Assembly (NCBI GenBank): GCA_045863295.1 | Contig: BTWA01000009.1 | Span: 96,001-160,000 of the forward strand | Reading direction: 5' to 3' | Length of the DNA: 64,000 bases | Origin: Candidatus Hydrogenedentota bacterium | GTDB lineage: Bacteria > Hydrogenedentota > Hydrogenedentia > Hydrogenedentales > SLHB01 | Shown here: piece after piece, positions 1 to 63,429 of the stretch | How positions within the stretch are numbered: the stretch's first letter is position 1 | Layout: each line of letters starts with the position of its first letter | The notes under the pieces: generated by a model | The model's database searches: none | Told to the model about the DNA's origin: nothing | What the model saw: only the letters and a program-made list of their open reading frames with translations | Program-made: the position numbers and the translations under genes

Positions 1-601
1 CCAAATTTGAAACACCACCCCACGAATCGGGCTGTTCGATTTTCTCGGCAATGGCGACCAAAGTCATTTCCGGGTCGCCGATGCACAGGCAGTCAAAGGA
101 ATCAAACGCCAGCATCACGGACTCGCTGTGTTGGCTGGCCGCTTCGCCGAAACCGACGATGCGCAGTTTGGGGCGAAGTCCTCGCAGGCGGGAGGCAATG
201 CGTGAGGCGCAAGGCAAATCTTCCACCGAGCGCAGGTGAAACGCAGCGAAATGGAGCCCACGCACATTTGCAAGCGCAACGGCAATGGAGTCGCAGAGTT
301 CGTTTTGCCGTTGGCGAAAGGCTTTGTCTGCGGAGCGGATTTGCCAGAGTGTGTGCAGGGTCTCAAGGGGGTTAATGGAATCGTCGCCGACTACTCGATC
401 CGCAATGCGCCTCGCCGTGTCACTCAACCCACCGGAGACCAGGCTTTCGACCACTTCTACGGAGCCATAGTCGTAGATGCGGGTTGTGTGTCCTGCATCC
501 AGCAGCGATCCGGCGGTTGCCGCCAGGACTCTGTCCGGCATAAGCGCCTGTGGATCAAAGGGATATCCAGGGCAGTACACGAGGGCGCTGCAGGTTTTCA
601 T
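1..601 (-). CDS. Cobalamin-binding-domain-like protein, probably the N-terminus of a B12-dependent radical SAM-type protein (partial, runs off window)
   Basis: Not in ORF track. Manual minus-strand translation from ATG at 601 (RBS AAGGAG upstream) is open to position 1: MKTCSALVYCPGYPFDP...LAATAGSLLDAGHTTRIYDY...RLRGLRPKLRIVGFGEAA...FDCLCIGDPEMTL, matching the B12-BD patterns 'LA..L...GH.V...D' and 'D....GE.E.T'. Confidence 0.65.
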   Translation of the reverse strand, partial: MKTCSALVYCPGYPFDPQALMPDRVLAATAGSLLDAGHTTRIYDYGSVEVVESLVSGGLSDTARRIADRVVGDDSINPLETLHTLWQIRSADKAFRQRQNELCDSIAVALANVRGLHFAAFHLRSVEDLPCASRIASRLRGLRPKLRIVGFGEAASQHSESVMLAFDSFDCLCIGDPEMTLVAIAEKIEQPDSWGGVSNL

Positions 602-719
602 AGGCGCTCCTTGCCTTCAGTATCGAGTGCGACCCCACGGACCCATGTCGGCGAAGGTACCACAAGATGTAGAAATCGCCATCACTCTCCGAACGCACAA
701 TACATTATATGGCGTGGCG

Positions 720-35510: not shown

Positions 35511-35590
35511 GTCCCGCCGGGACTTTGCGGATTGCGCCTGTATACCCGCCCTTGAAAGGGCGGGCTATCGTCTGGTGTCCCTCCGGGACT
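35511..35590. repeat. REP-like composite palindromic element
   Basis: GTCCCGCCGGGACT ... CCCGCCCTTGAAAGGGCGGG ... GTCCCTCCGGGACT: two near-identical terminal palindromes around a central hairpin. Confidence 0.65.
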
Positions 35591-53433: not shown

Positions 53434-56400
53434 TCACGGTAAGTCGAGGTTTTTGGTTTTTCGCAATTGCATGCCGCCAAACACCAACGAAACGGCGGCT
53501 AACACGAGAACGATCACACCACCGATTGCGGCGGGCATGCGTGCACCGGAAAGGTCGGGGGCAGGAATCGTGTCGTCCTGCCGCCTGCCCCACTGCAGAG
53601 TGGCGCTGTGAAAGAGGGCGATGGCGGGTTCGCTTGGCGAGTGACTGGCCGTCAAGGCAGTGCCCACGGGGTCGAGCAAACCCACAACCTGTTCCACCGG
53701 GTGCCATCCGGCATGCGGACCGTCAGCAATGTACGCGTAGAGGCACAGCGTGCTCATGTCTTCTTCATTAGGCTGGTGGAGATTGGCAAGTATTGATACT
53801 GTAGCGGGTCCGCGAATCTCCGCAACGAAAGGTTCGCCGATCGCGCCGACAAGTACCGGTACATTCATTGCCTCCGAAACGTCGATTACTTCGAATGTAA
53901 CCGCGATCGACCTCACGAGTTCACCGTCGATTGTCCGTGCCGTTGCCCAAAGACGGATCGACTCGCCTTCCGCCCAATTCGACTTAGGAGTCACTGTAAC
54001 CCATGCGTCGTTGCCCGCGGATAGCGGGACTTCCATCCACTTCACCTCGTATGGTGAATTCATGCTGACGTCAACGGACATTTGGACACTCTGCGTATCT
54101 AACGGCGTATCTGCGCGCAGGCGCACGGCCAGAGCGTCATCGGGCAATGCAGCGCGCACACCCGGAGCAATGGACCCTATTGGAAGCGCGACTTCGAATG
54201 CACGCGCGTCCAGACCCTTGGTTCCCGTGCCGCGGTGGCCGCTGTCGGGGTTGCTCCAATCGCTAACGGTGCTGCCCGCACCCAGTGCTTGAACCCAGTA
54301 CACGTGCGAGTTGACCTCGAATTCGGTGGAGGGCGATCCGCCACATCCGCTCGCGGGGATGGTGATCTCGGTTGGCGCGGCAGCGGAAAAGTCATCGTGC
54401 TGCGTACTCGCGACATCGGCCAACATCTGTGCCGCACCAGGATTGGCTAGGTTGGCGCGGTACACGCGGTATGCCGTTGCATTCGCTACGGCACTCCAGG
54501 TTACGCGCACCTTATCGGTAAAAGTGCCATCGCTGGCTTGCAGGTTTTGCGGTTTGTCCAAGGTCGCGCGGATGTAATCCCCTGCGGTGTTGGCTTTGTT
54601 TCCGCCCCCCACGGTTACGCGTTGCGGCAACGGGGTCACCCAGCCGGGAACTTGCGAGAATGACACAATGTAATCTTGAGGCTTTAGACCAGTGACTTCC
54701 ACGCCGCTGTTGTTCCAAGCGCCGTCTTCAATGCGCCATTGCGCGCCCGCGGTCACGGCATCAGCCGGAGTGAGGGCGCATTGGATTGACCCCGGCCGCT
54801 GATACAGCCCGCTGCGTTCGAGAACCTGCTCAGGCGCAAGGGTGATATTAATCGTATCCGGTGTGAACCATCCGGCTACGGTTTTAAACTGAATCTGGTG
54901 GGCTCCTTGCGGCACGTTCTCCAGTGTCACGCCCGAGCTTTGCCACAGCCCGCTGTCCAAGCGCCATTGCGCGCCCGCGTTGACGCAGTCCTGCGGGCCC
55001 AACGTTACTTTCACCTTGCCTACGTTGGATACCAGGGGAACTGTCTCTTGCTTGCTCTGGCCGGCCGCGAGGATCACGGGACCAGAATACGTTTGGAAAT
55101 GCGGGGCCTGCACGGTGAGGGTGTAGCTTTGCCCTTCGAGACTAACCTCCCATGGTCCTCCGGGCGGCACGGCAATGTTGTTGTACGTGCTGTTGACATC
55201 GCCATTGCCGGGAACCAGGTTGAGCGTCGCGCCGGGAACATATGCACCGTTGTACTGCACGTGCACTTTGAGATTGGAGTTCAACGTGGGCGCGGCTTCC
55301 CGCCATACGCGTAACGAGTATCCCGTGTCGTCTCCGTATCCATCGCCCGCGCCTTTGGTGGAATAATAGACCTGCACGAGGTACCGGCCGTCCGCAGGCA
55401 CAACGAAAGAGACGTAGGAAGAAAAGTCACCCAGACCCGCGTCGTCGTTGGAGGCGATGGGAGACTTCACGCTGACGGGTCCGAACACATCGATCTGGGT
55501 GTCGCATCCCAGCCCGAGGTTTGACGTTTCAACCGTCACGATGGCCCCTGCGACCTCCTCAAACACGACGCAATCCACATCACCCTGGACGTGAAATGTG
55601 TGCCGTTGATCGGGGAAGCCGTTCACGGTGATCGGCTTGGCCAGTTCAAGGGTATCGTCCGCTTCGTACTCGTCGGGCGGCGTGCCTTCCGGAAAGGGCT
55701 TGTGCACAACGGTCTTCGCGGGTGCCGAGGTGTTGTCGCGCAAGTCAACCGCCGTCACTGTAACGGCGTAGGTACCAAATGCGTCGAAGATATCAATGGC
55801 TGCTTCGTAGCGGCCCTGGGCAACCGAGAGCAACTCGATTTCCACCTGCGTCAGACCGTCGGGCTTGGTTATGAGACATACCACTTCCTTCAATGAAAGC
55901 AGTGCGCTAATCTCCACCCAGATGGTGGCTTGGATCTCTTCGGGAGTTAATGTCTGAGCGCTTGATATGGCGCCGATAAGCGGTTCATCTCCCGACAATT
56001 CAATGCCGGTGCCGATGCTGTATTGCTGCGCGAGCGCTCCATCGATCTTCGTGCTGAATACGCCGTCGCCGTTGTCGTCGAGTTCAGCCCGTTGTTGGGC
56101 AGCCGAGTTCATGGCCTTGGCGGCCGTGGAAAACGCTTCTCCTACCGTCGCGCCGAGTGCCGTTTCCACCCAGAAGTAGCGGCTGAACGAGACGACGCCG
56201 TTGTTTGCAAAGGTGGCCGGTTGGCCGGAACCCGCCGAACCGACCAGGATTCGTTTCTGGCCCGCGGTGGGCCGAAGTCCCGAGATAACGCTACCCGATC
56301 CCGATGCATCGCACGCAACCGTGACAATGCCGGGTATGTCCTGGTGGAGCGCGTCGAGCCACCCGTCCAACACAGGCCAGGCGAGGAACTCGGCATCGCC

Positions 56401-59400
56401 GAGGTGAAACCCGTTGGTGGATCCTTGACCAACGAGACACAGCGTGAAATCGCGGGTGCTGGCCGAGGCCCACGTGTCGAGGGCGTCTTCCACACTCGCC
56501 AGCGTGGCGATACCGTCCACATCCGCCGTGATGGTCTGGCTCAGATAGCGAATGTCTTCCGGCGCATACCCCTGTATCTTCAACGAACGGTACACCCACG
56601 CCGCAAGCCATTCGTACGCGGGCCATTCGGGCGATGCATCGCTGCCCCCGGCCACGATGAGCACCTTGCGCGTCGGCGGCGCGCCGACGGTAACGGTGGT
56701 TTGGTAGGGCCCGGCGATCTGCCCTGCGCGGTTCGAAGCATATATATCCACTGTGTAGTCGCCCGGCGTGACAAAGTCTAGATAGGTGCCTTCCCATCGT
56801 CCGGTACCATCGGGCAGCAATTCCACAGTAGCCAGTTCCGTCACCGCAATGGTCGACGATTGCTGCTCATAAGTTGGCGGCGTGATGACCGCCCATACAC
56901 GGTTGATGCCGGAATCGTCGGTGAAGTCGGCCCAGATAACGCCGTCATTCACACCGCTGATCGTTCCGTCGCCGCCCACCGTATCGATCACGGGATCCGT
57001 AATGCCCTGCGGTACGCCGCTGCCTAGAAATGCGCTCTGCAATGCTGTCAAATCGCCGGGTTCGTTCGGCGTGCCGTTGCCGTCCGCGTCGAGTTGCGCT
57101 TTCTGAAATGATATCTCGACGGCATCCCGCGCGCGGGAAAACGCGGGTCCCAACGGATCACCGTTTAGAATCTGCATCCAAAAATGATTCGAAAAGGATA
57201 GGGCGCCGCCACTTACAAAATAGGCCTGTTCGCCTGGAGTGGTGCTGGTCATAATCACACGGCCCGAATTGGCCAAATTCTGCAGCAAAGAACCTGACTC
57301 GCACGCGTCGTAGACCAGGTAAATCTTTCCGCTTATCTGCGATTGGAGTGCCGAGAGCCACGCCACGAGGTCTGTGTCAAAAAGGAGTTCATTCTCGTTA
57401 ATACGGAACTTGTCCACACCACCATGATCGACCATGTACACGACCACATCATCTATCGGATCCGAAGTAGGGGACTGTCCCGCCCAAACCGTGAGCGCTT
57501 CCTGAATATTGGCCCGCGTAGCTTCGGCGTCAACGTTGACCCCGTTGGCATCGGGCGAAAGTAGCCGTATGCTGTCGTGCGTGAATCCCCGATATAGCAA
57601 CGCTTCGTGAGCGATGCGGGCGGTAGCAACGGTTGCATCCCATAGCCGGTTGCCTGCATAGGGTCCGCCGCCGGCGACAATTACCGCCTTGTTGTTAGCC
57701 ACGGCCGCGACCGGTGAAAACTCTTGAACGCGTGCGGCTTCGGTATCCAGTACATACACGTGGCCAATGGCATCCACAATAACATCGCGTGGAAAGGAGA
57801 ATTGTCCTGGATCAGTGCCGGTTTCTCCGATAGTCGTTATCAAAGTTCCGTCGGGAGCGTATTTGTAAAGTTTGTCCTCTCCGGTTCCCGTAATATAGAG
57901 ATTCCCTGCGGCGTCCACGTCCATTCCCCGATAGCTGGCTCCGGTGTGAGGCGTAAACACGACACCTGAATCCACCCAGGCTGTACCGTCCCAGAGAAAC
58001 TCTGCAATCGTGTCTGTGGAACCTATGTAGGCGATAGAGCCTGTGGGAGAGAGACCTATTGTCCTTGCAGTACCCGATGGTAAGGTCATTACCGGCGTCC
58101 CACTGATGCTGCCGGATGAACCGTTGATGATATATACGCCGCCCGAGCCAACAAAATATACATCCCCGTTTGGATGCATCGCCCAGTCACGAGCGTCAAC
58201 GGTGGGAATTGCTTCGAACTGTTCAACACCAGCCATATTGTACTTGGTCACGACTCCGCCACTCAGTCGGGGCAGAATCTCGGCGACGAAGACATTGCCC
58301 GCCGCGTCTACAAGGCACGCATCAGGTTCGCGATCTTCGAACGGATCTTCAGCGAACTCAGGGTATTGCTTCCATACCGAGAGGAACTGACCGGTGGGTG
58401 AGTATTTGTTTATTCGCCGGTTGAGGTAGTCGGCAACAAAAAAATTCCCCGATGCATCTCTGGAGAATCCCCACGGAGCGGTAAGGTAACCGGGTGCAGA
58501 AGAAGCACTGCCGATGCTGCCTGTCAACAGCCCGTTCCGCGTAAACTTGCGAATGGAACTTGCCCCTTGGTCGACCAAGTAAACGTAGCCTCTCTTGTCG
58601 GCGGCTAATCCGAATATTTCGCCCGTGCCACCGGGGAGCGGGTAGTTCATGATCACTAATACATCATCTGCTGGCTGCGTCCACCGTACAATGTCACCAT
58701 AATCGTTGCCCGCGTAAACTGTACCGCCTGGCCCCACGGCCATATATCCGGTAGGATTGCCATACGAAACTCCTCCCGGTCCAGTCCAATCAAAATGAAA
58801 TGGAAGTGCTTCACCCGAGGGCGAGTATTTGCTAGTGCCGTCGATGAAGAGATAGCCGTCCTCGTCGATAACCATATCCTTGTGTGCAATCACATTGGGA
58901 AGATGTCCCAGGTATCCACTCTCCAGATCAAACAAGTATGTTCCGGTGGCTGACCCCACATAGATCAATCCAGATTTGGCCACAGAGATGCACGTCGGCA
59001 AGAATGCTGGAGTGGTGCTGTCGGAGCCGTCGGTGAGTATGGCGCCAAGCTGTTCGCCCTTTTGATTGCACGCCCCCACGGCTGGAAACGGCGTTGTGGG
59101 GTTTGTTCCGTAGATCATAAAAAAGTTGCCGCGCGTGTCGAGCGCAAGATCTATTACTTTAAATCCCGCCGAACCAGGGACACCCGGCTGTCCCAACGCA
59201 TCATCGAAAGGTGCGGTGACATACGTCGAACCAAGATACCGGCCATTTTCGTTAAACTTTACAATCCAATAATTGTCGGAGACGTAAAGATTGCCCAAGT
59301 CATCCACTTGCACCGAAACCGGACTGGAGAAGCCGTACGACACATTACTGGAGGGCCACAGACGTTCGAACCGGTAATCGTCAGCATTGGCCCGACCGCT

Positions 59401-59523
59401 GCTCGATAGCAAAACAAACGCCGTCCCCAGTAAGCACAAGCGCACATCCAGCCTGCAACCGCACCCCATAACCCAAACCCTTCCACCCACGACGCGCCGC
59501 TGAAACCCCGGTTTGAAATACAT
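53434..59523 (-). CDS. Large surface protein: NHL repeats + active C13-like peptidase + inactive copy + PPC + Ig/FN3 + ZU5-like + TM
   Basis: YRFERLWP N-terminus shared with 10385; YMVDHGG...YDACESGS dyad; second copy LVGQGS/CDASGSG; two AGAQWR repeats; PQNLQASDG FN3-like; C-terminal TM + RKTK. Start uncertain (59523 or 59469). Confidence 0.85.
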   Translation of the reverse strand: MYFKPGFQRRVVGGRVWVMGCGCRLDVRLCLLGTAFVLLSSSGRANADDYRFERLWPSSNVSYGFSSPVSVQVDDLGNLYVSDNYWIVKFNENGRYLGSTYVTAPFDDALGQPGVPGSAGFKVIDLALDTRGNFFMIYGTNPTTPFPAVGACNQKGEQLGAILTDGSDSTTPAFLPTCISVAKSGLIYVGSATGTYLFDLESGYLGHLPNVIAHKDMVIDEDGYLFIDGTSKYSPSGEALPFHFDWTGPGGVSYGNPTGYMAVGPGGTVYAGNDYGDIVRWTQPADDVLVIMNYPLPGGTGEIFGLAADKRGYVYLVDQGASSIRKFTRNGLLTGSIGSASSAPGYLTAPWGFSRDASGNFFVADYLNRRINKYSPTGQFLSVWKQYPEFAEDPFEDREPDACLVDAAGNVFVAEILPRLSGGVVTKYNMAGVEQFEAIPTVDARDWAMHPNGDVYFVGSGGVYIINGSSGSISGTPVMTLPSGTARTIGLSPTGSIAYIGSTDTIAEFLWDGTAWVDSGVVFTPHTGASYRGMDVDAAGNLYITGTGEDKLYKYAPDGTLITTIGETGTDPGQFSFPRDVIVDAIGHVYVLDTEAARVQEFSPVAAVANNKAVIVAGGGPYAGNRLWDATVATARIAHEALLYRGFTHDSIRLLSPDANGVNVDAEATRANIQEALTVWAGQSPTSDPIDDVVVYMVDHGGVDKFRINENELLFDTDLVAWLSALQSQISGKIYLVYDACESGSLLQNLANSGRVIMTSTTPGEQAYFVSGGALSFSNHFWMQILNGDPLGPAFSRARDAVEISFQKAQLDADGNGTPNEPGDLTALQSAFLGSGVPQGITDPVIDTVGGDGTISGVNDGVIWADFTDDSGINRVWAVITPPTYEQQSSTIAVTELATVELLPDGTGRWEGTYLDFVTPGDYTVDIYASNRAGQIAGPYQTTVTVGAPPTRKVLIVAGGSDASPEWPAYEWLAAWVYRSLKIQGYAPEDIRYLSQTITADVDGIATLASVEDALDTWASASTRDFTLCLVGQGSTNGFHLGDAEFLAWPVLDGWLDALHQDIPGIVTVACDASGSGSVISGLRPTAGQKRILVGSAGSGQPATFANNGVVSFSRYFWVETALGATVGEAFSTAAKAMNSAAQQRAELDDNGDGVFSTKIDGALAQQYSIGTGIELSGDEPLIGAISSAQTLTPEEIQATIWVEISALLSLKEVVCLITKPDGLTQVEIELLSVAQGRYEAAIDIFDAFGTYAVTVTAVDLRDNTSAPAKTVVHKPFPEGTPPDEYEADDTLELAKPITVNGFPDQRHTFHVQGDVDCVVFEEVAGAIVTVETSNLGLGCDTQIDVFGPVSVKSPIASNDDAGLGDFSSYVSFVVPADGRYLVQVYYSTKGAGDGYGDDTGYSLRVWREAAPTLNSNLKVHVQYNGAYVPGATLNLVPGNGDVNSTYNNIAVPPGGPWEVSLEGQSYTLTVQAPHFQTYSGPVILAAGQSKQETVPLVSNVGKVKVTLGPQDCVNAGAQWRLDSGLWQSSGVTLENVPQGAHQIQFKTVAGWFTPDTINITLAPEQVLERSGLYQRPGSIQCALTPADAVTAGAQWRIEDGAWNNSGVEVTGLKPQDYIVSFSQVPGWVTPLPQRVTVGGGNKANTAGDYIRATLDKPQNLQASDGTFTDKVRVTWSAVANATAYRVYRANLANPGAAQMLADVASTQHDDFSAAAPTEITIPASGCGGSPSTEFEVNSHVYWVQALGAGSTVSDWSNPDSGHRGTGTKGLDARAFEVALPIGSIAPGVRAALPDDALAVRLRADTPLDTQSVQMSVDVSMNSPYEVKWMEVPLSAGNDAWVTVTPKSNWAEGESIRLWATARTIDGELVRSIAVTFEVIDVSEAMNVPVLVGAIGEPFVAEIRGPATVSILANLHQPNEEDMSTLCLYAYIADGPHAGWHPVEQVVGLLDPVGTALTASHSPSEPAIALFHSATLQWGRRQDDTIPAPDLSGARMPAAIGGVIVLVLAAVSLVFGGMQLRKTKNLDLP

Positions 59524-59779
59524 GCCCCGTCCCGGAAGAAACGGAGCCGATTCAGATAGTATTACGCCATATTGGGATAGTTGCTTCCAACCTCTATAGT
59601 ATACACCATGTGGGTCGGCATGTAAGCGTAAGTCACTTCCTTTTGCGGCATGAGCTTTTGATACGCTTTTTTTCGCGGGGCTCGTGTCGACAAGTGTGAA
59701 TCTTCCATGCATTTGAATAGGACCGGGGAAGATCGGGAAACCGTGATGTGCAGGGTGTTGGCAGTCGCAACGCTTATTT

Positions 59780-59811
59780 AAAAAACAAGCGCCTCCACGG
59801 CGGAGGCGCTT
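59780..59811 (-). terminator. Intrinsic terminator
   Basis: Minus strand AAGCGCCTCC-GCCGT-GGAGGCGCTT then GTTTTTT. Confidence 0.85.
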
Positions 59812-59940
59812 TGTATGCAAATTAATGGGGAAAGCAGCGTAGCAATCTCTACCTCTGTCGACACAGCCCGATAAAATGTCATCGGGGAGGAGTCCATGCG
59901 GGACTATCGCTTAGGCAGCCCTCGCTGCGCTGCTTCCTCT
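59780..59940 (-). ncRNA. Candidate multibranched structured RNA (about 160 nt)
   Basis: Own promoter; long 5'/3' closing stem; three internal hairpins; intrinsic terminator. Confidence 0.6.
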
Positions 59941-59946
59941 GTCTGT

Positions 59947-59974
59947 ATTATACCGCAGATCGGCATTTTTGCAA
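59947..59974 (-). promoter_or_regulatory. Putative sigma70 promoter of the candidate RNA
   Basis: Minus strand TTGCAA-N16-TATAAT. Confidence 0.65.
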
Positions 59975-60066
59975 CTGTTTTTTGAAGACCTGCGGCATGG
60001 CGCGGAGCGTTCCAAATGGGGTACGATGGGCGCTTCGTATGATAACCCACAATAGGACGTTCAGGC

Positions 60067-60570
60067 ATGGGTGACCGGTTTCTAGAGCAATACGGTGGAC
60101 AGTCGACGGACCAGCTCATCGCCATGGAAAATGAGTACCGGATCGACTCCTTGGTGCTGGCGTTCGAGCAGGCAATCGATCAGAAGGCGTATGACCACGG
60201 CATGGATGCGCTTTCCGATGAGGAGGCAGTCGTGCTGGCGATCGAAGCGCTGGAGCGCGAAGTGAACAACGGGGGCTACATGCTGTTTTTTACCAATAGT
60301 TCAGTTGAATACGCCCCGATGATTCTGCACGCGCTGGGCCGAATCGACTGTCCGTACACGCAGTCGGTGACCGAACGCGCTATTGAGGCGTTGGCAATCG
60401 ACGGCCCCTTAACGGTTGAAAACATCGAGGAAGTAATTGCTGAAAGCGATCCTGATGTAAGGGACGAGTTGGCGAAATGCGATGATTTGTATTTTCAGGG
60501 GCAAGAGGATATCGCGGGCCGCCTGTTTGAGTTCATTCGCAACAACCGCTCCGGCATACGGATTCCGTGA
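60067..60570 (+). CDS. DUF4375 / DMP19-like acidic protein
   Basis: LEREVNNGGY..FF.NS, AL..I, highly acidic, C-terminal L..FIRNN. Confidence 0.8.
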   Translation: MGDRFLEQYGGQSTDQLIAMENEYRIDSLVLAFEQAIDQKAYDHGMDALSDEEAVVLAIEALEREVNNGGYMLFFTNSSVEYAPMILHALGRIDCPYTQSVTERAIEALAIDGPLTVENIEEVIAESDPDVRDELAKCDDLYFQGQEDIAGRLFEFIRNNRSGIRIP

Positions 60571-60595: not shown

Positions 60596-61378
60596 GTGAA
60601 ATTGGGTATGGTCACATACAACATGGGCAAGGACATGGACCTGCCCACGCTGCTTGAATTCTGCGAGAAGACCCGGCTGGAAGGCGTGGAACTCCGGACA
60701 ACGCATGCGCACGGAGTGGAAGTCGAGATGAATGCGCAGCAACGCATGGAAGTGCGTCAGCGGTTTGAGCATTCGCCCGTGCGTCTGGTGCAGTTGGGAT
60801 CGACCTACGACTTCCATACGCCCGATCAAGCCGAATTGCGCAAGAGCGTCGAAGGCGCCAAGGTCTATGCGCAACTCGCGCACGACGTCGGCGCATCCGG
60901 CATCAAGGTGCGGCCGAACGGATTGCCCGAGGGGGTGCCCGTGGAAAAGACCCTGGAGCAAATCGGCAAGAGCATCGGCGAGGTCGCGCGTTCGGCCGAA
61001 GGCATTGGTGTCGAGGTTCGGCTTGAGGTCCACGGCAAAGGCACCTCCGAATTGCCTCATATCAAGACCATTATGGACCATGCCAGCCATCCGATGGCGG
61101 TTGTGAACTGGAATTCCAATCCCGTCGATATGGACGCCAACGGCAGCATCGACGCGAGTTTTAATCTTGTGAAAGATAAGATCCGCCACGTCCACATGCG
61201 CGACCTCGGTGTGCAGGACTATCCCTGGCAAGACTTGTTCAACAAGCTGAAGTCGATCAATTACGACGGGTATTGTTGCGCCGAAATTGCGTTTAATCCC
61301 GAGCCGGAACGTTTCATGCACGCCTACCGGACCCTGTTCGATCTGTATACCGGCGACTACCATTGGCCCCGAAAGTAG
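60596..61378 (+). CDS. Sugar phosphate isomerase/epimerase (xylose isomerase-like TIM barrel)
   Basis: GVELR, RLEVHG, HVHMRD, YDGYCCAE. Confidence 0.88.
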   Translation: MKLGMVTYNMGKDMDLPTLLEFCEKTRLEGVELRTTHAHGVEVEMNAQQRMEVRQRFEHSPVRLVQLGSTYDFHTPDQAELRKSVEGAKVYAQLAHDVGASGIKVRPNGLPEGVPVEKTLEQIGKSIGEVARSAEGIGVEVRLEVHGKGTSELPHIKTIMDHASHPMAVVNWNSNPVDMDANGSIDASFNLVKDKIRHVHMRDLGVQDYPWQDLFNKLKSINYDGYCCAEIAFNPEPERFMHAYRTLFDLYTGDYHWPRK

Positions 61379-63429
61379 CTCCGTCGGAAAATCCGTTCGA
61401 GGCCCAAGCCGCCGGTTCGTCGCCTTTGGTTGCCAGCTTGATGCGGCATCCCTATTTTTGCCGCGCGTTGACGGAACTCGATGGCATCGGCGACAAGCGC
61501 GCCGAGTTATTCGCCAATCTGGGCATCGCCACCGTGGCCGATTTGGTTATGCACTTTCCTCGCACGTACCAGGATCGTTCCCGGTTTACCTCCATTAGCG
61601 ATGTCCAGGAAGGACAGACGGTAACCCTTCAAGCCGAGGTGGTCAAAGCAAAGGCCGTGCGTTTGAAGCGGCGGCTCACGCTCGCGGAAGTTACTTTGCG
61701 CGACGCTACCGGAACCCTGAAGGCGATCTGGTTCGGCCAGGACTACCTTGTGCGTGTAATGACTCCGGGCGTGACCTGCATTTTTCACGGTCCAGTCAGC
61801 AAATGGAACGGCCTTGCGTTGCGCAATCCGGATTATGAACTGCTTGTCAAAGACGAGGACGAGCGGATCCATACGGGCCGCGTGGTGCCTATCTACCGCC
61901 TGACGGACGGTCTATCGCAACGCATAGTCCGGCGCACGGTGTGGGCTGTGCTCGAGTTGCTGCCCGACGACGTGCCCGATGGCTTGCCTCCGGTCTTGAA
62001 GGAACGGTACGGCTGGCAGGATACGCGTGCAGCGCTTCGATGTGTTCATTTCCCCGACGACTTGGAAAGCGTCGCGCATTCTCGGAATCGCTTTGCGTAC
62101 GAAGAGCTGCTGTATTTACAGATTGGCATCCAGCGATCGCGTTTGCAGCGCCTTCACGAGGAAACCGGTTTTCGGCATGTGGTCAACGGCCGGCACCTCG
62201 AAAGTTTTCGAAGGGCGCTTCCATTTGCGCTGACCGCGTCGCAGCAACGCGTTGTCGGAGAGATTCTCAACGACATGGCATCCCCACGCTCCATGATCCG
62301 GTTGGTACAGGGCGACGTTGGATGCGGGAAGACGATTGTTGCATTGCATGCGGTGGCGGCGGCCGTGGACGGTGGATATCAAGCCGCGCTGATGGCGCCG
62401 ACGGAAATCCTCGCAGAGCAACACGCGTATGTGCTGCGATCTCACCTGGAGCCACTGGGTCTGGATTTGGCCCTGCTGACCGGTTCGACTCAGGGGGCTG
62501 CGCCCCTGCGCAAGCAGATTGCCTCCGGCGCATGTTCCGTGGTGGTGGGTACGCACGCGCTGTTTCAAGAGGCCACCGGGTTCAAACGCCTGGGGCTTGT
62601 CATCATTGACGAGCAACACAGGTTTGGCGTGCTGCAACGAAGCGCCTTGGTGGAGAAAGGACTCAACCCGGATATCCTTCACATGACGGCGACACCCATC
62701 CCGCGCACGTTGGCCATTACGGTGTATGGCGGAATGGATTTGAGCATCATCGACGAACTTCCGCCGGGCCGAAAGCCGGTGACAACACGGCGCATTCCCG
62801 ATGGAAAGGTCAACGAGTGTTACGACTATATATGCCGTCAAGCCGGACGGGGTTTGCAGACGTACATTGTTTGCCCGCTGGTCGATGAATCCGACAAGAA
62901 AGCGTTGACGTCTGTAACTAAACATTACGATGTATTGTCAAATGGTCCACTGGCTTCCGTGCGCACGGGCTTACTGCACGGTCGCTTGTCCTACGACGAG
63001 AAAGACGCGGTCATGCGGCAGTTCAAAGACGGAGCGATCGATGTACTCTTCAGCACAACCGTGATCGAGGTTGGCGTCGATTGTCCCAACGCCACGACCA
63101 TGGTAATTGAAGATGCGGCGCAGTTCGGGCTGACTCAGTTGCACCAATTGCGTGGACGCGTAGGACGCGGAGAGGAACAGGCGTATTGTTTTCTGTTGGG
63201 CAAGCCCAGGACGCCGGAGGGCAAACAGCGGTTGGATTTGCTGGTCGAACACGCCAGCGGCTTCGACATTGCCGAAGCCGATCTTCTCATGCGAGGTCCC
63301 GGAGAGTTTCTGGGCGTCCGCCAGGCGGGACTCAGCGATTTGCGCGTGGCCGACCTGATTCGCGACGTTCACCTGATCGACGCGGCCCGTCGCGATGCCG
63401 GCGAATGGATTGCCATGGGCCAGGGGTGA
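61363..63429 (+). CDS. recG: ATP-dependent DNA helicase RecG
   Basis: HFPRTYQD wedge region, QGDVGCGKT, MAPTEILAEQH, DEQHRFG, MTATPIPRTL, QLHQLRGRVGRG, RGPGEFLG; start uncertain (61363 or 61441). Confidence 0.97.
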   Translation: MAPKVAPSENPFEAQAAGSSPLVASLMRHPYFCRALTELDGIGDKRAELFANLGIATVADLVMHFPRTYQDRSRFTSISDVQEGQTVTLQAEVVKAKAVRLKRRLTLAEVTLRDATGTLKAIWFGQDYLVRVMTPGVTCIFHGPVSKWNGLALRNPDYELLVKDEDERIHTGRVVPIYRLTDGLSQRIVRRTVWAVLELLPDDVPDGLPPVLKERYGWQDTRAALRCVHFPDDLESVAHSRNRFAYEELLYLQIGIQRSRLQRLHEETGFRHVVNGRHLESFRRALPFALTASQQRVVGEILNDMASPRSMIRLVQGDVGCGKTIVALHAVAAAVDGGYQAALMAPTEILAEQHAYVLRSHLEPLGLDLALLTGSTQGAAPLRKQIASGACSVVVGTHALFQEATGFKRLGLVIIDEQHRFGVLQRSALVEKGLNPDILHMTATPIPRTLAITVYGGMDLSIIDELPPGRKPVTTRRIPDGKVNECYDYICRQAGRGLQTYIVCPLVDESDKKALTSVTKHYDVLSNGPLASVRTGLLHGRLSYDEKDAVMRQFKDGAIDVLFSTTVIEVGVDCPNATTMVIEDAAQFGLTQLHQLRGRVGRGEEQAYCFLLGKPRTPEGKQRLDLLVEHASGFDIAEADLLMRGPGEFLGVRQAGLSDLRVADLIRDVHLIDAARRDAGEWIAMGQG

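Follow-up and report, generated by a model that had tools for sequence, protein, structure and literature searches.

The intergenic stretch at positions 59826 to 59941 of a Hydrogenedentota genome segment of 64,000 nucleotides (nt), here called the window, is very probably a real RNA gene and belongs to a new, previously uncatalogued family of structured noncoding RNAs (ncRNAs). All coordinates without a locus label are positions in the window, and the candidate RNA lies on its minus strand. At a probability of roughly 0.6 for the statement as a whole, we read it as a conserved stand-alone RNA that acts in trans as the recognition partner, scaffold or decoy of a protein. The gene is located in a 550-nt gap between a DMP19-like gene on the plus strand and a divergently oriented NHL/SGL/Peptidase_C13 gene on the minus strand. 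In the direction of transcription, a promoter is followed by the 116-nt structured stretch, the letters CCCA and, after 19 nt, a terminator hairpin. The promoter TTGCAA-N16-TATAAT, pointed out in an initial annotation made from the letters of the sequence, agrees with the consensus at 10 of 12 positions in a consensus scan and predicts a transcription start about 5-8 nt 3' of the -10 element, at approximately 59942-59939. The terminator with its U-run, likewise noted there, would end the RNA about 155-160 nt from that start. A search of public sequencing runs found no RNA run that contains the locus, and the DNA contigs of four runs are identical to the window here and add nothing to it.

Homologs of the RNA are found in about half of the Hydrogenedentota genomes searched. 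A BLAST search with the 201-nt locus against the window's own genome and 60 relatives returned chance matches of 15-27 nt only, and homologs were collected with covariance models built from the window sequence alone (R1), from three sequences (R2) and from 22 sequences (R3). R1 retrieved two relatives that match over the full length, both from other genera of the window's taxonomic family (f1) and sharing long motifs with the window copy, including GGAAGC.GCG.AGCGAG and CU.AGCG..AGUCCCGC. A third R1 match (locus L018, genome G027) was a plain palindromic hairpin scoring on both strands and was dropped; the true copy of that genome was found later at L033. R2 found matches in 24 of 133 genomes of the order and R3 in 69 of 135 genomes of the phylum (54 of the 86 high-quality genomes), representing 11 of 15 families. 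No R3 match was obtained in the 14 genomes of family f3, the 8 genomes of genus g4 or the single genome each of f6, f14 and f15. Each carrier genome has a single locus, except for reverse-strand echoes and, in genome G042, one adjacent tandem domain. The echoes appear because the closing stem of the RNA is near-palindromic, and they score far below the forward matches, for example 26.9 versus 96.2 bits in L023. In the window's own genome the R3 match (68.3 bits, E = 1.9e-11, model positions 1-114) is the sole match even at E<=5; since the window sequence is part of the R3 seed, this match arises by construction, and the independent support is the retrieval of relatives by R1. A strict exact-pattern scan of one genome per species, covering 185,579 species, found 12 loci, 11 of them labeled Hydrogenedentota, -dentes or -dentales or unlabeled and one labeled Nitrospirales. 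As far as searched, the family is restricted to the candidate phylum Hydrogenedentota, an uncultured phylum common in sludge and bioreactors.

The RNA could not be assigned to any known family. Covariance scans with Rfam 15 at gathering thresholds identified only an Acido-Lenti-1 RNA in the whole window, away from the locus. At E<=10, the locus itself (59500-60100) gave chance-level terminator matches only, with no tRNA (RF00005) and no YrlA, and nothing credible was obtained for the long form of the RNA described below. Twenty homologous loci searched at E<=1 yielded nothing except one tRNA gene beside one of them (L036:1343-1415, minus strand, genome G037; 73 bits), which shares the strand of the RNA and lies about 85 nt downstream of it. 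ARAGORN found 0 tRNA or tmRNA genes in the window, and the RNA contains no T- or D-loop motif. The initial annotation, which recognized neither an Rfam family nor tRNA D/T-loop consensus, is borne out on both counts. A literature search on Hydrogenedentota and noncoding RNA, judged at the level of search results, found no description of such an RNA. Identity with signal recognition particle (SRP) RNA, 6S RNA, RNase P RNA or tmRNA was considered and rejected, as all four are present elsewhere in the same genome above their cut-offs, SRP RNA on contig C2 (60.7 bits) and 6S RNA on contig C28 (53.1 bits) both exceeding the gathering score. The 5' GGAAGCAGC string of the candidate RNA is reminiscent of the SRP domain IV motif.

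Covariation supports the modeled helices throughout. We searched 60 of the 71 loci with the model and kept matches at E<=8e-6, a cut that removed the weakest loci and all reverse-strand echoes, resulting in an alignment of 59 sequences. Homologs and covariation, to which the initial annotation had pointed as a check on the RNA, were both obtained. At the 32 model pairs, 87.9% of alignment cells are paired; column shuffles give 74.3%, and 0 of 500 shuffles reach the observed value. Double changes occur in 28 of the 32 pairs versus 19.5 +/- 1.5 in shuffles. Sliding the 3' partners by 1-3 columns lowers pairing to 35-46%. Pairs with double changes are distributed over all helices, comprising 11 of 14 in the outer closing stem, 4 of 5 in the inner stem, 5 of 5 in hairpin H1 and 8 of 8 in hairpin H2. 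For 22 sequences, RNAalifold predicted 23 pairs, 16 of them compensatory.

The shared architecture consists of a long closing stem and two hairpins. The closing stem is formed from both ends of the RNA, and its inner half is near-invariant (GCGU-AG-CGAGA opposite UCUCG-ACGC). It carries a purine bulge of 1-2 nt and, further out, a frequently mismatched position (11 of 57 cells with letters on both sides). Pairs flanking the bulge are nearly invariant, with CG in 42 of 52, GC in 44 of 52 and UA in 47 of 51 lettered cells, while the outer pairs covary. H1 possesses an invariant UCC/GGA stem core, and H2 is G+C-rich with variable sequence. Within the f1 consensus, identity above 90% is confined to the inner closing stem and the stem of H1; H2, the loops and the junctions are variable, and no junction or loop column attains 90%. 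The sequence following the closing stem is variable and mostly U-rich in 69 aligned loci. The CCCA described there in the initial annotation is present, though in the window copy alone, and in relatives the stem leads directly into the U-rich run. The idea of a processed, CCA-ending RNA fails because the CCA is not conserved.

The window's copy is predicted to fold more stably than expected from its composition. A 166-nt stretch folds at -70.7 kcal/mol compared with -50.3 +/- 3.8 kcal/mol for 200 dinucleotide shuffles (z = -5.35), none of which is as stable. In the minimum free energy (MFE) fold, the closing stem has about 21 pairs, divided into three segments, and carries the two conserved hairpins. 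All closing-stem segments and two of the three hairpins proposed initially are recovered in this fold (Table 1), and both of these hairpins are supported by covariation. The remainder of the inner part has two isoenergetic solutions, both at -51.0 kcal/mol: a helix P2 that encloses H1 and H2, with an ensemble pair probability of about 0.69, and the third hairpin of the initial annotation at about 0.30. This hairpin is thus one of two predicted folds, and no conserved counterpart was found in the relatives examined. The four-way, cloverleaf-like topology built on it is accordingly only one possibility for the window's copy and is not conserved in relatives. P2-like helices of different sequence are present in L016, L033 and L034 and absent from other relatives.

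Table 1. Positions of the RNA gene, its signals, its predicted helices and the flanking genes in the window
Feature	Position	Strand	Description
Promoter, sigma-70-type	59947..59974	-	-35 TTGCAA 59974-59969, 16-nt spacer, -10 TATAAT 59952-59947
Conserved structured RNA	59826..59941	-	Covariance-model match, 116 nt
Closing stem, outer part P1a	59937-59928 with 59839-59830	-	GGAAGCAGCG / CGCUGCUUUC, MFE fold
Closing stem, P1b	59926-59922 with 59845-59841	-	AGCGA / UUGCU, MFE fold
5' strand of P1a/P1b	59922..59937	-	GGAAGCAGCG-C-AGCGA; most conserved family sequence, consensus GCGUAGCGAGA
3' strand of P1a/P1b	59830..59845	-	UUGCU-A-CGCUGCUUUC; relatives have UCUCGACGC
Closing stem, P1c	59918-59913 with 59854-59849	-	CUGCCU/AGGUAG; inner part 59849..59918
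Hairpin H1	59905-59891	-	AGUCC-CGCAU-GGACU
Hairpin H2	59886-59867	-	CCCGAUGA/UUAUCGGG, MFE fold
Helix P2, alternative A	59910-59906 with 59862-59857	-	GCGAU/GUCG-C, encloses H1 and H2
Third hairpin, alternative B	59866-59855	-	CUGU/ACAG
Intrinsic terminator	59777..59811	-	11-pair G+C-rich hairpin 59811-59787, then GUUUUUU
Downstream gene (outside the element)	53434..59523	-	2029 amino acids; NHL/SGL repeats, Peptidase_C13, further beta-sandwich domains
Upstream divergent gene (outside the element)	60067..60570	+	DMP19-like protein, 167 amino acids

Promoter positions indicate a single-domain form of the RNA in family f1 and a multi-domain form in other families. In 23 of 27 f1 loci, compared with 0 of 42 loci from other families, the RNA begins 5-8 nt after the end of an extended -10 element (TGnTAnnnT), and 20 of those 23 f1 loci also possess TTG[ACG] at -35. 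The window copy has the best hexamers and lacks the TG extension. Judged by promoter position, f1 copies are predicted to stand alone and to measure about 110 nt. Additional RNA domains would not fit upstream of the window copy, since the divergent DMP19-like gene starts only about 90 nt beyond the promoter. Outside f1, a promoter of the same type is located 194-434 nt upstream in 32 of 42 loci, and the sequence directly upstream of the unit is itself conserved and structured; we infer a longer RNA (about 300-550 nt) with two to four stem-closed domains under one promoter, the unit being its 3'-terminal domain. For the f5 group, a consensus fold of 113 pairs (22 compensatory, from only 7 close sequences) divides the entire 440-nt region into four stem-closed domains, the third being a paralog of the fourth with the same two hairpins. 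One such four-domain RNA of about 440 nt is found at L023:1140-1625 (plus strand, promoter TTGCAA..TGGTATACT), with equivalents in L020, L024, L027, L029, L030, L032 and L035. The candidate RNA is unrelated to the first two domains of this larger RNA (L023:1178-1287 and 1290-1375). The tandem match in G042 (L065:483-594 and 601-709, plus strand; 29.6 and 57.3 bits) is a paralogous upstream domain close enough to the 3' domain for detection as a tandem copy. Searches of the window's own genome with nhmmer and the f5 long-form profiles gave no matches, missed the known domain as well and are too insensitive for 5' domains.

The closing stem may also serve in transcription termination. A U-run (at least six T in the first 12 nt) follows the stem in 16 of 27 f1 loci and 32 of 42 others, and because this arrangement is present in most loci, the closing stem and U-run of the last domain probably double as the terminator. 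The window copy has a weak U-run after the stem and a separate canonical terminator instead.

The pattern of conservation points to protein recognition as the most likely mode of action, since it is the helical sequence of the bulged helix and the H1 stem that is conserved and not junction or single-stranded nucleotides. In the mechanism we favor, the single-copy gene would produce an RNA that acts in trans, a protein would read the bulged helix, and the RNA would be its partner, scaffold or decoy, in the manner of 6S, Y or CsrB-type ribonucleoproteins. Less likely modes are the sensing of a small molecule and seed pairing. A further proposal, which we find plausible but advance tentatively, is that the ~110-nt RNA represents the autonomous core of a new class of large RNAs of about 300-550 nt, confined to Hydrogenedentota, with two to four stem-closed, Y-shaped domains under one strong promoter, and that f1 has been stripped to the last domain with a promoter of its own. 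If so, the reduction in f1 would mark the last domain and its near-invariant bulged helix as the functional part, likely a docking site for a ribonucleoprotein.

Several points weigh against this interpretation. The window's own copy departs from the consensus precisely at the bulged helix, where it has GCUACGC in place of UCGACGC, so that the AG is paired and no bulge forms, leading to a weaker case for the bulge as the functional site in this genome. The distribution is patchy. The RNA was not detected in 66 of 135 genomes, some of them near-complete (for example G015, 97%, 10 contigs), and 27 non-carrier genomes of family f1 remained without a match (0 of 27) under laxer filters; the family is consequently not universal and either dispensable or too diverged for detection in part of the phylum. 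In 19 relatives' loci whose flanking genes were scanned with Pfam, no gene is consistently adjacent to the RNA. The covariation alignment was fitted to the model, which favors the model's structure, and the long form as one transcript is inferred from promoter and terminator positions only. Expression, ends and processing of the RNA are likewise predictions.

Other functions acting in trans were weighed against the same data. A base-pairing small RNA (sRNA), with an exposed loop or junction pairing in antisense to the regulated mRNAs and possibly an Hfq-like chaperone on the terminator or U-tail, is unlikely. It would fit a stand-alone gene with a promoter and a Rho-independent terminator, the U-run after the stem in most relatives, the variable genomic context usual for many sRNAs and the conservation of unpaired stretches outside f1 (H1 loop CAAACA and AGACC..CAGCGAA). 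In f1, however, conservation extends to none of the single-stranded stretches, with loops and junctions free to vary, and most of the molecule is locked in long helices. More doubtful still is a function residing in the RNA only, with the unit serving for folding, assembly or catalysis within a large structured RNA and the f1 form as a reduced remnant that keeps the activity. A catalytic core would be expected to have conserved junction nucleotides, which are missing from the f1 copies, as is the palindromic loop, and there is no likeness to any ribozyme or large-RNA family in Rfam 15. What speaks for this possibility is the presence of the unit in 11 of 15 families, outside f1 as the last of several stem-closed domains, next to a paralogous domain with the same two hairpins; the H2 loops of long forms also carry a near-palindromic CAYGUG through which loop-loop contacts are conceivable. 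A mimic of Y RNA or tRNA, bound by Rsr (Ro60) or processed at a CCA end by tRNA enzymes, as considered in the initial annotation, is very improbable. Ends paired in a long bulged stem, a branched distal part, the CCCA of the window copy and a genome that encodes TROVE/Rsr are all compatible with such a role. TROVE/Rsr is found in only 3 of 135 genomes of the phylum compared with 69 for the RNA, which makes a Y-RNA role unlikely; carriers such as G010, G023 and G051 lack Rsr, and the window's own rsr gene lies on another contig (C20 instead of C9) with its own YrlA-like RNA. YrlA and tRNA models are unmatched by the candidate.

Regulation of the downstream gene in cis is no more credible. The element lies upstream of the NHL/Peptidase_C13 gene on the same strand and has the classical layout of an 'off' riboswitch, with a terminator behind a structured domain, which would make it a riboswitch or attenuator leader of that gene. 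The terminator nevertheless ends about 258 nt before the start codon, and between them lies a weaker promoter-like site (CTTACA-17-TATACT at 59626-59598, minus strand), the separate -10 element near 59600 that the initial annotation had cited in favor of an independent RNA. By eye, the 3' strand of the closing stem shows no convincing alternative pairing with the terminator, and junction nucleotides are not conserved. The genes flanking homologs are unrelated and include CBS, hexapeptide transferase, GlcNAc 2-epimerase, NotI, fucosidase, MFS transporter, FG-GAP and RecG genes among others, and in L016, L017, L030, L033 and L036 the closest downstream gene with Pfam support is convergent. An NHL/SGL gene occurs near only one other copy (L036), where it is convergent and separated from the RNA by a tRNA gene. 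These variable and often convergent neighbors argue that the RNA is neither a leader nor a riboswitch; the independent gene preferred in the initial annotation is supported, and its alternative of a new riboswitch is not. Finally, the stretch might contain no RNA gene at all and simply be a chance inverted repeat or a bidirectional terminator between divergent genes, a notion suggested by weak plus-strand chance matches of the terminator hairpin and by the reverse-strand model matches of the near-palindromic closing stem. With forward scores always far above reverse scores, strand-specific promoter placement, covariation in asymmetric hairpins and conservation across 11 families, the chance of this is negligible. 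The reading as a trans-acting RNA recognized by a protein remains the one we prefer.

The surroundings of the RNA gene contain additional features. A small open reading frame inside the RNA, starting at the AUG of the H1 loop, was dismissed because that loop is not conserved. The 2029-amino-acid product of the downstream gene is predicted to be secreted and combines NHL/SGL beta-propeller repeats with a legumain-like Peptidase_C13 domain and internalin-K-like and CarboxypepD_reg-like domains. A terminator-like hairpin of 10 pairs (GCUCCGUUUC..GGGACGGGGC, 59524-59547, minus strand) ends directly at the ATG of this gene (59523) and would occlude the ribosome-binding region, which may reflect translation control or a true start further downstream. 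On the other side, RecG is encoded at 61363-63429 (plus strand), about 1.4 kb from the RNA and past the DMP19-like and a xylose-isomerase-like gene. In genome G026, RecG is located divergently upstream of the RNA (L034:1733-3109, plus strand), the sole trace of shared gene order, which suggests that the two intervening genes were inserted in the window. The Acido-Lenti-1 RNA (RF01687) mentioned above is full-length and lies at 35545-35590 (plus strand; 45.6 bits, gathering score 37); its host here belongs to Hydrogenedentota and not to Acidobacteria or Lentisphaerae.

The family is also of practical use. Multi-domain in most families and single-domain in one, it constitutes a natural 'deletion series' that points to the functional core, and a well-defined RNA of about 110 nt represents a handle for pull-downs, structure probing and structure determination. 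The model allows annotators to fill a recurrent 'empty' intergenic region in Hydrogenedentota genomes. Should the RNA be a routine lineage-specific sRNA, the gain would be limited to a new Rfam-type family.

Several known systems share features with the RNA and differ from it in others. Like 6S RNA (RF00013) and the small SRP RNA (RF00169), the candidate combines a promoter of the type found for abundant RNAs, ends paired in a long imperfect helix, a single gene copy and a presumed protein partner, but those RNAs are single rods while the candidate is branched. With YrlA (RF02553), the partner of Rsr/Ro60, it shares 5' and 3' ends joined in a long, bulged and conserved stem, a variable branched module, a stand-alone gene and, in some lineages, a tandem arrangement with related domains; it differs in matching no YrlA model, lacking tRNA-like T and D arms and not lying beside rsr. 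In the window's genome, the TROVE/Rsr (Ro60-like) protein is encoded by a 533-amino-acid open frame on contig C20 (approximately 72010-73020, minus strand). About 1.3 kb downstream of it, on the same strand, is a YrlA-like RNA (L013:197-333, minus strand; 32.3 bits, E = 4.4e-05, gathering score 69) with recognizable T-arm- and D-arm-like motifs. Junction-type riboswitches such as SAM-I, in which an aptamer is followed by a terminator, resemble the candidate in their closing helix, multi-helix junction and downstream terminator on the strand of the next gene. They are set apart by the conserved junction nucleotides, conserved downstream gene and Rfam match that the candidate lacks, its downstream gene being often convergent. 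A kink-turn has the consensus of a C-stem, a 3-nt bulge and tandem G.A/A.G pairs. Only by slipping the register can the family consensus GCG-UAG/UAC-..GA.. opposite ..GA-CGC be drawn in this form, and the window copy, with U instead of G opposite, cannot form one. Pfam Ribosomal_L7Ae has no match in the window's genome; lack of an L7Ae-family gene and the unfit window copy make a kink-turn/L7Ae ribonucleoprotein unlikely.

Further parallels are the raiA motif, ROOL, GOLLD and OLE, which are orphan structured bacterial ncRNAs. Large or highly structured bacterial RNAs without a known function are few, and several later yielded new biochemistry. Compared with these four through Rfam only, the candidate is alike in being lineage-restricted and built from several covarying helices, in having a promoter and a terminator to itself and in lacking a conserved gene association, and its long form of about 300-550 nt with several domains falls in their size range. 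It is distinguished by the absence of an Rfam 15 match, by its lineage, the Hydrogenedentota, and by the occurrence of both multi-domain and single-domain (~110 nt) forms. The family described here is new and of a familiar kind, that of orphan structured bacterial ncRNAs, and it is unusual in existing as a multi-domain RNA and, in one lineage, as an isolated 3' domain.

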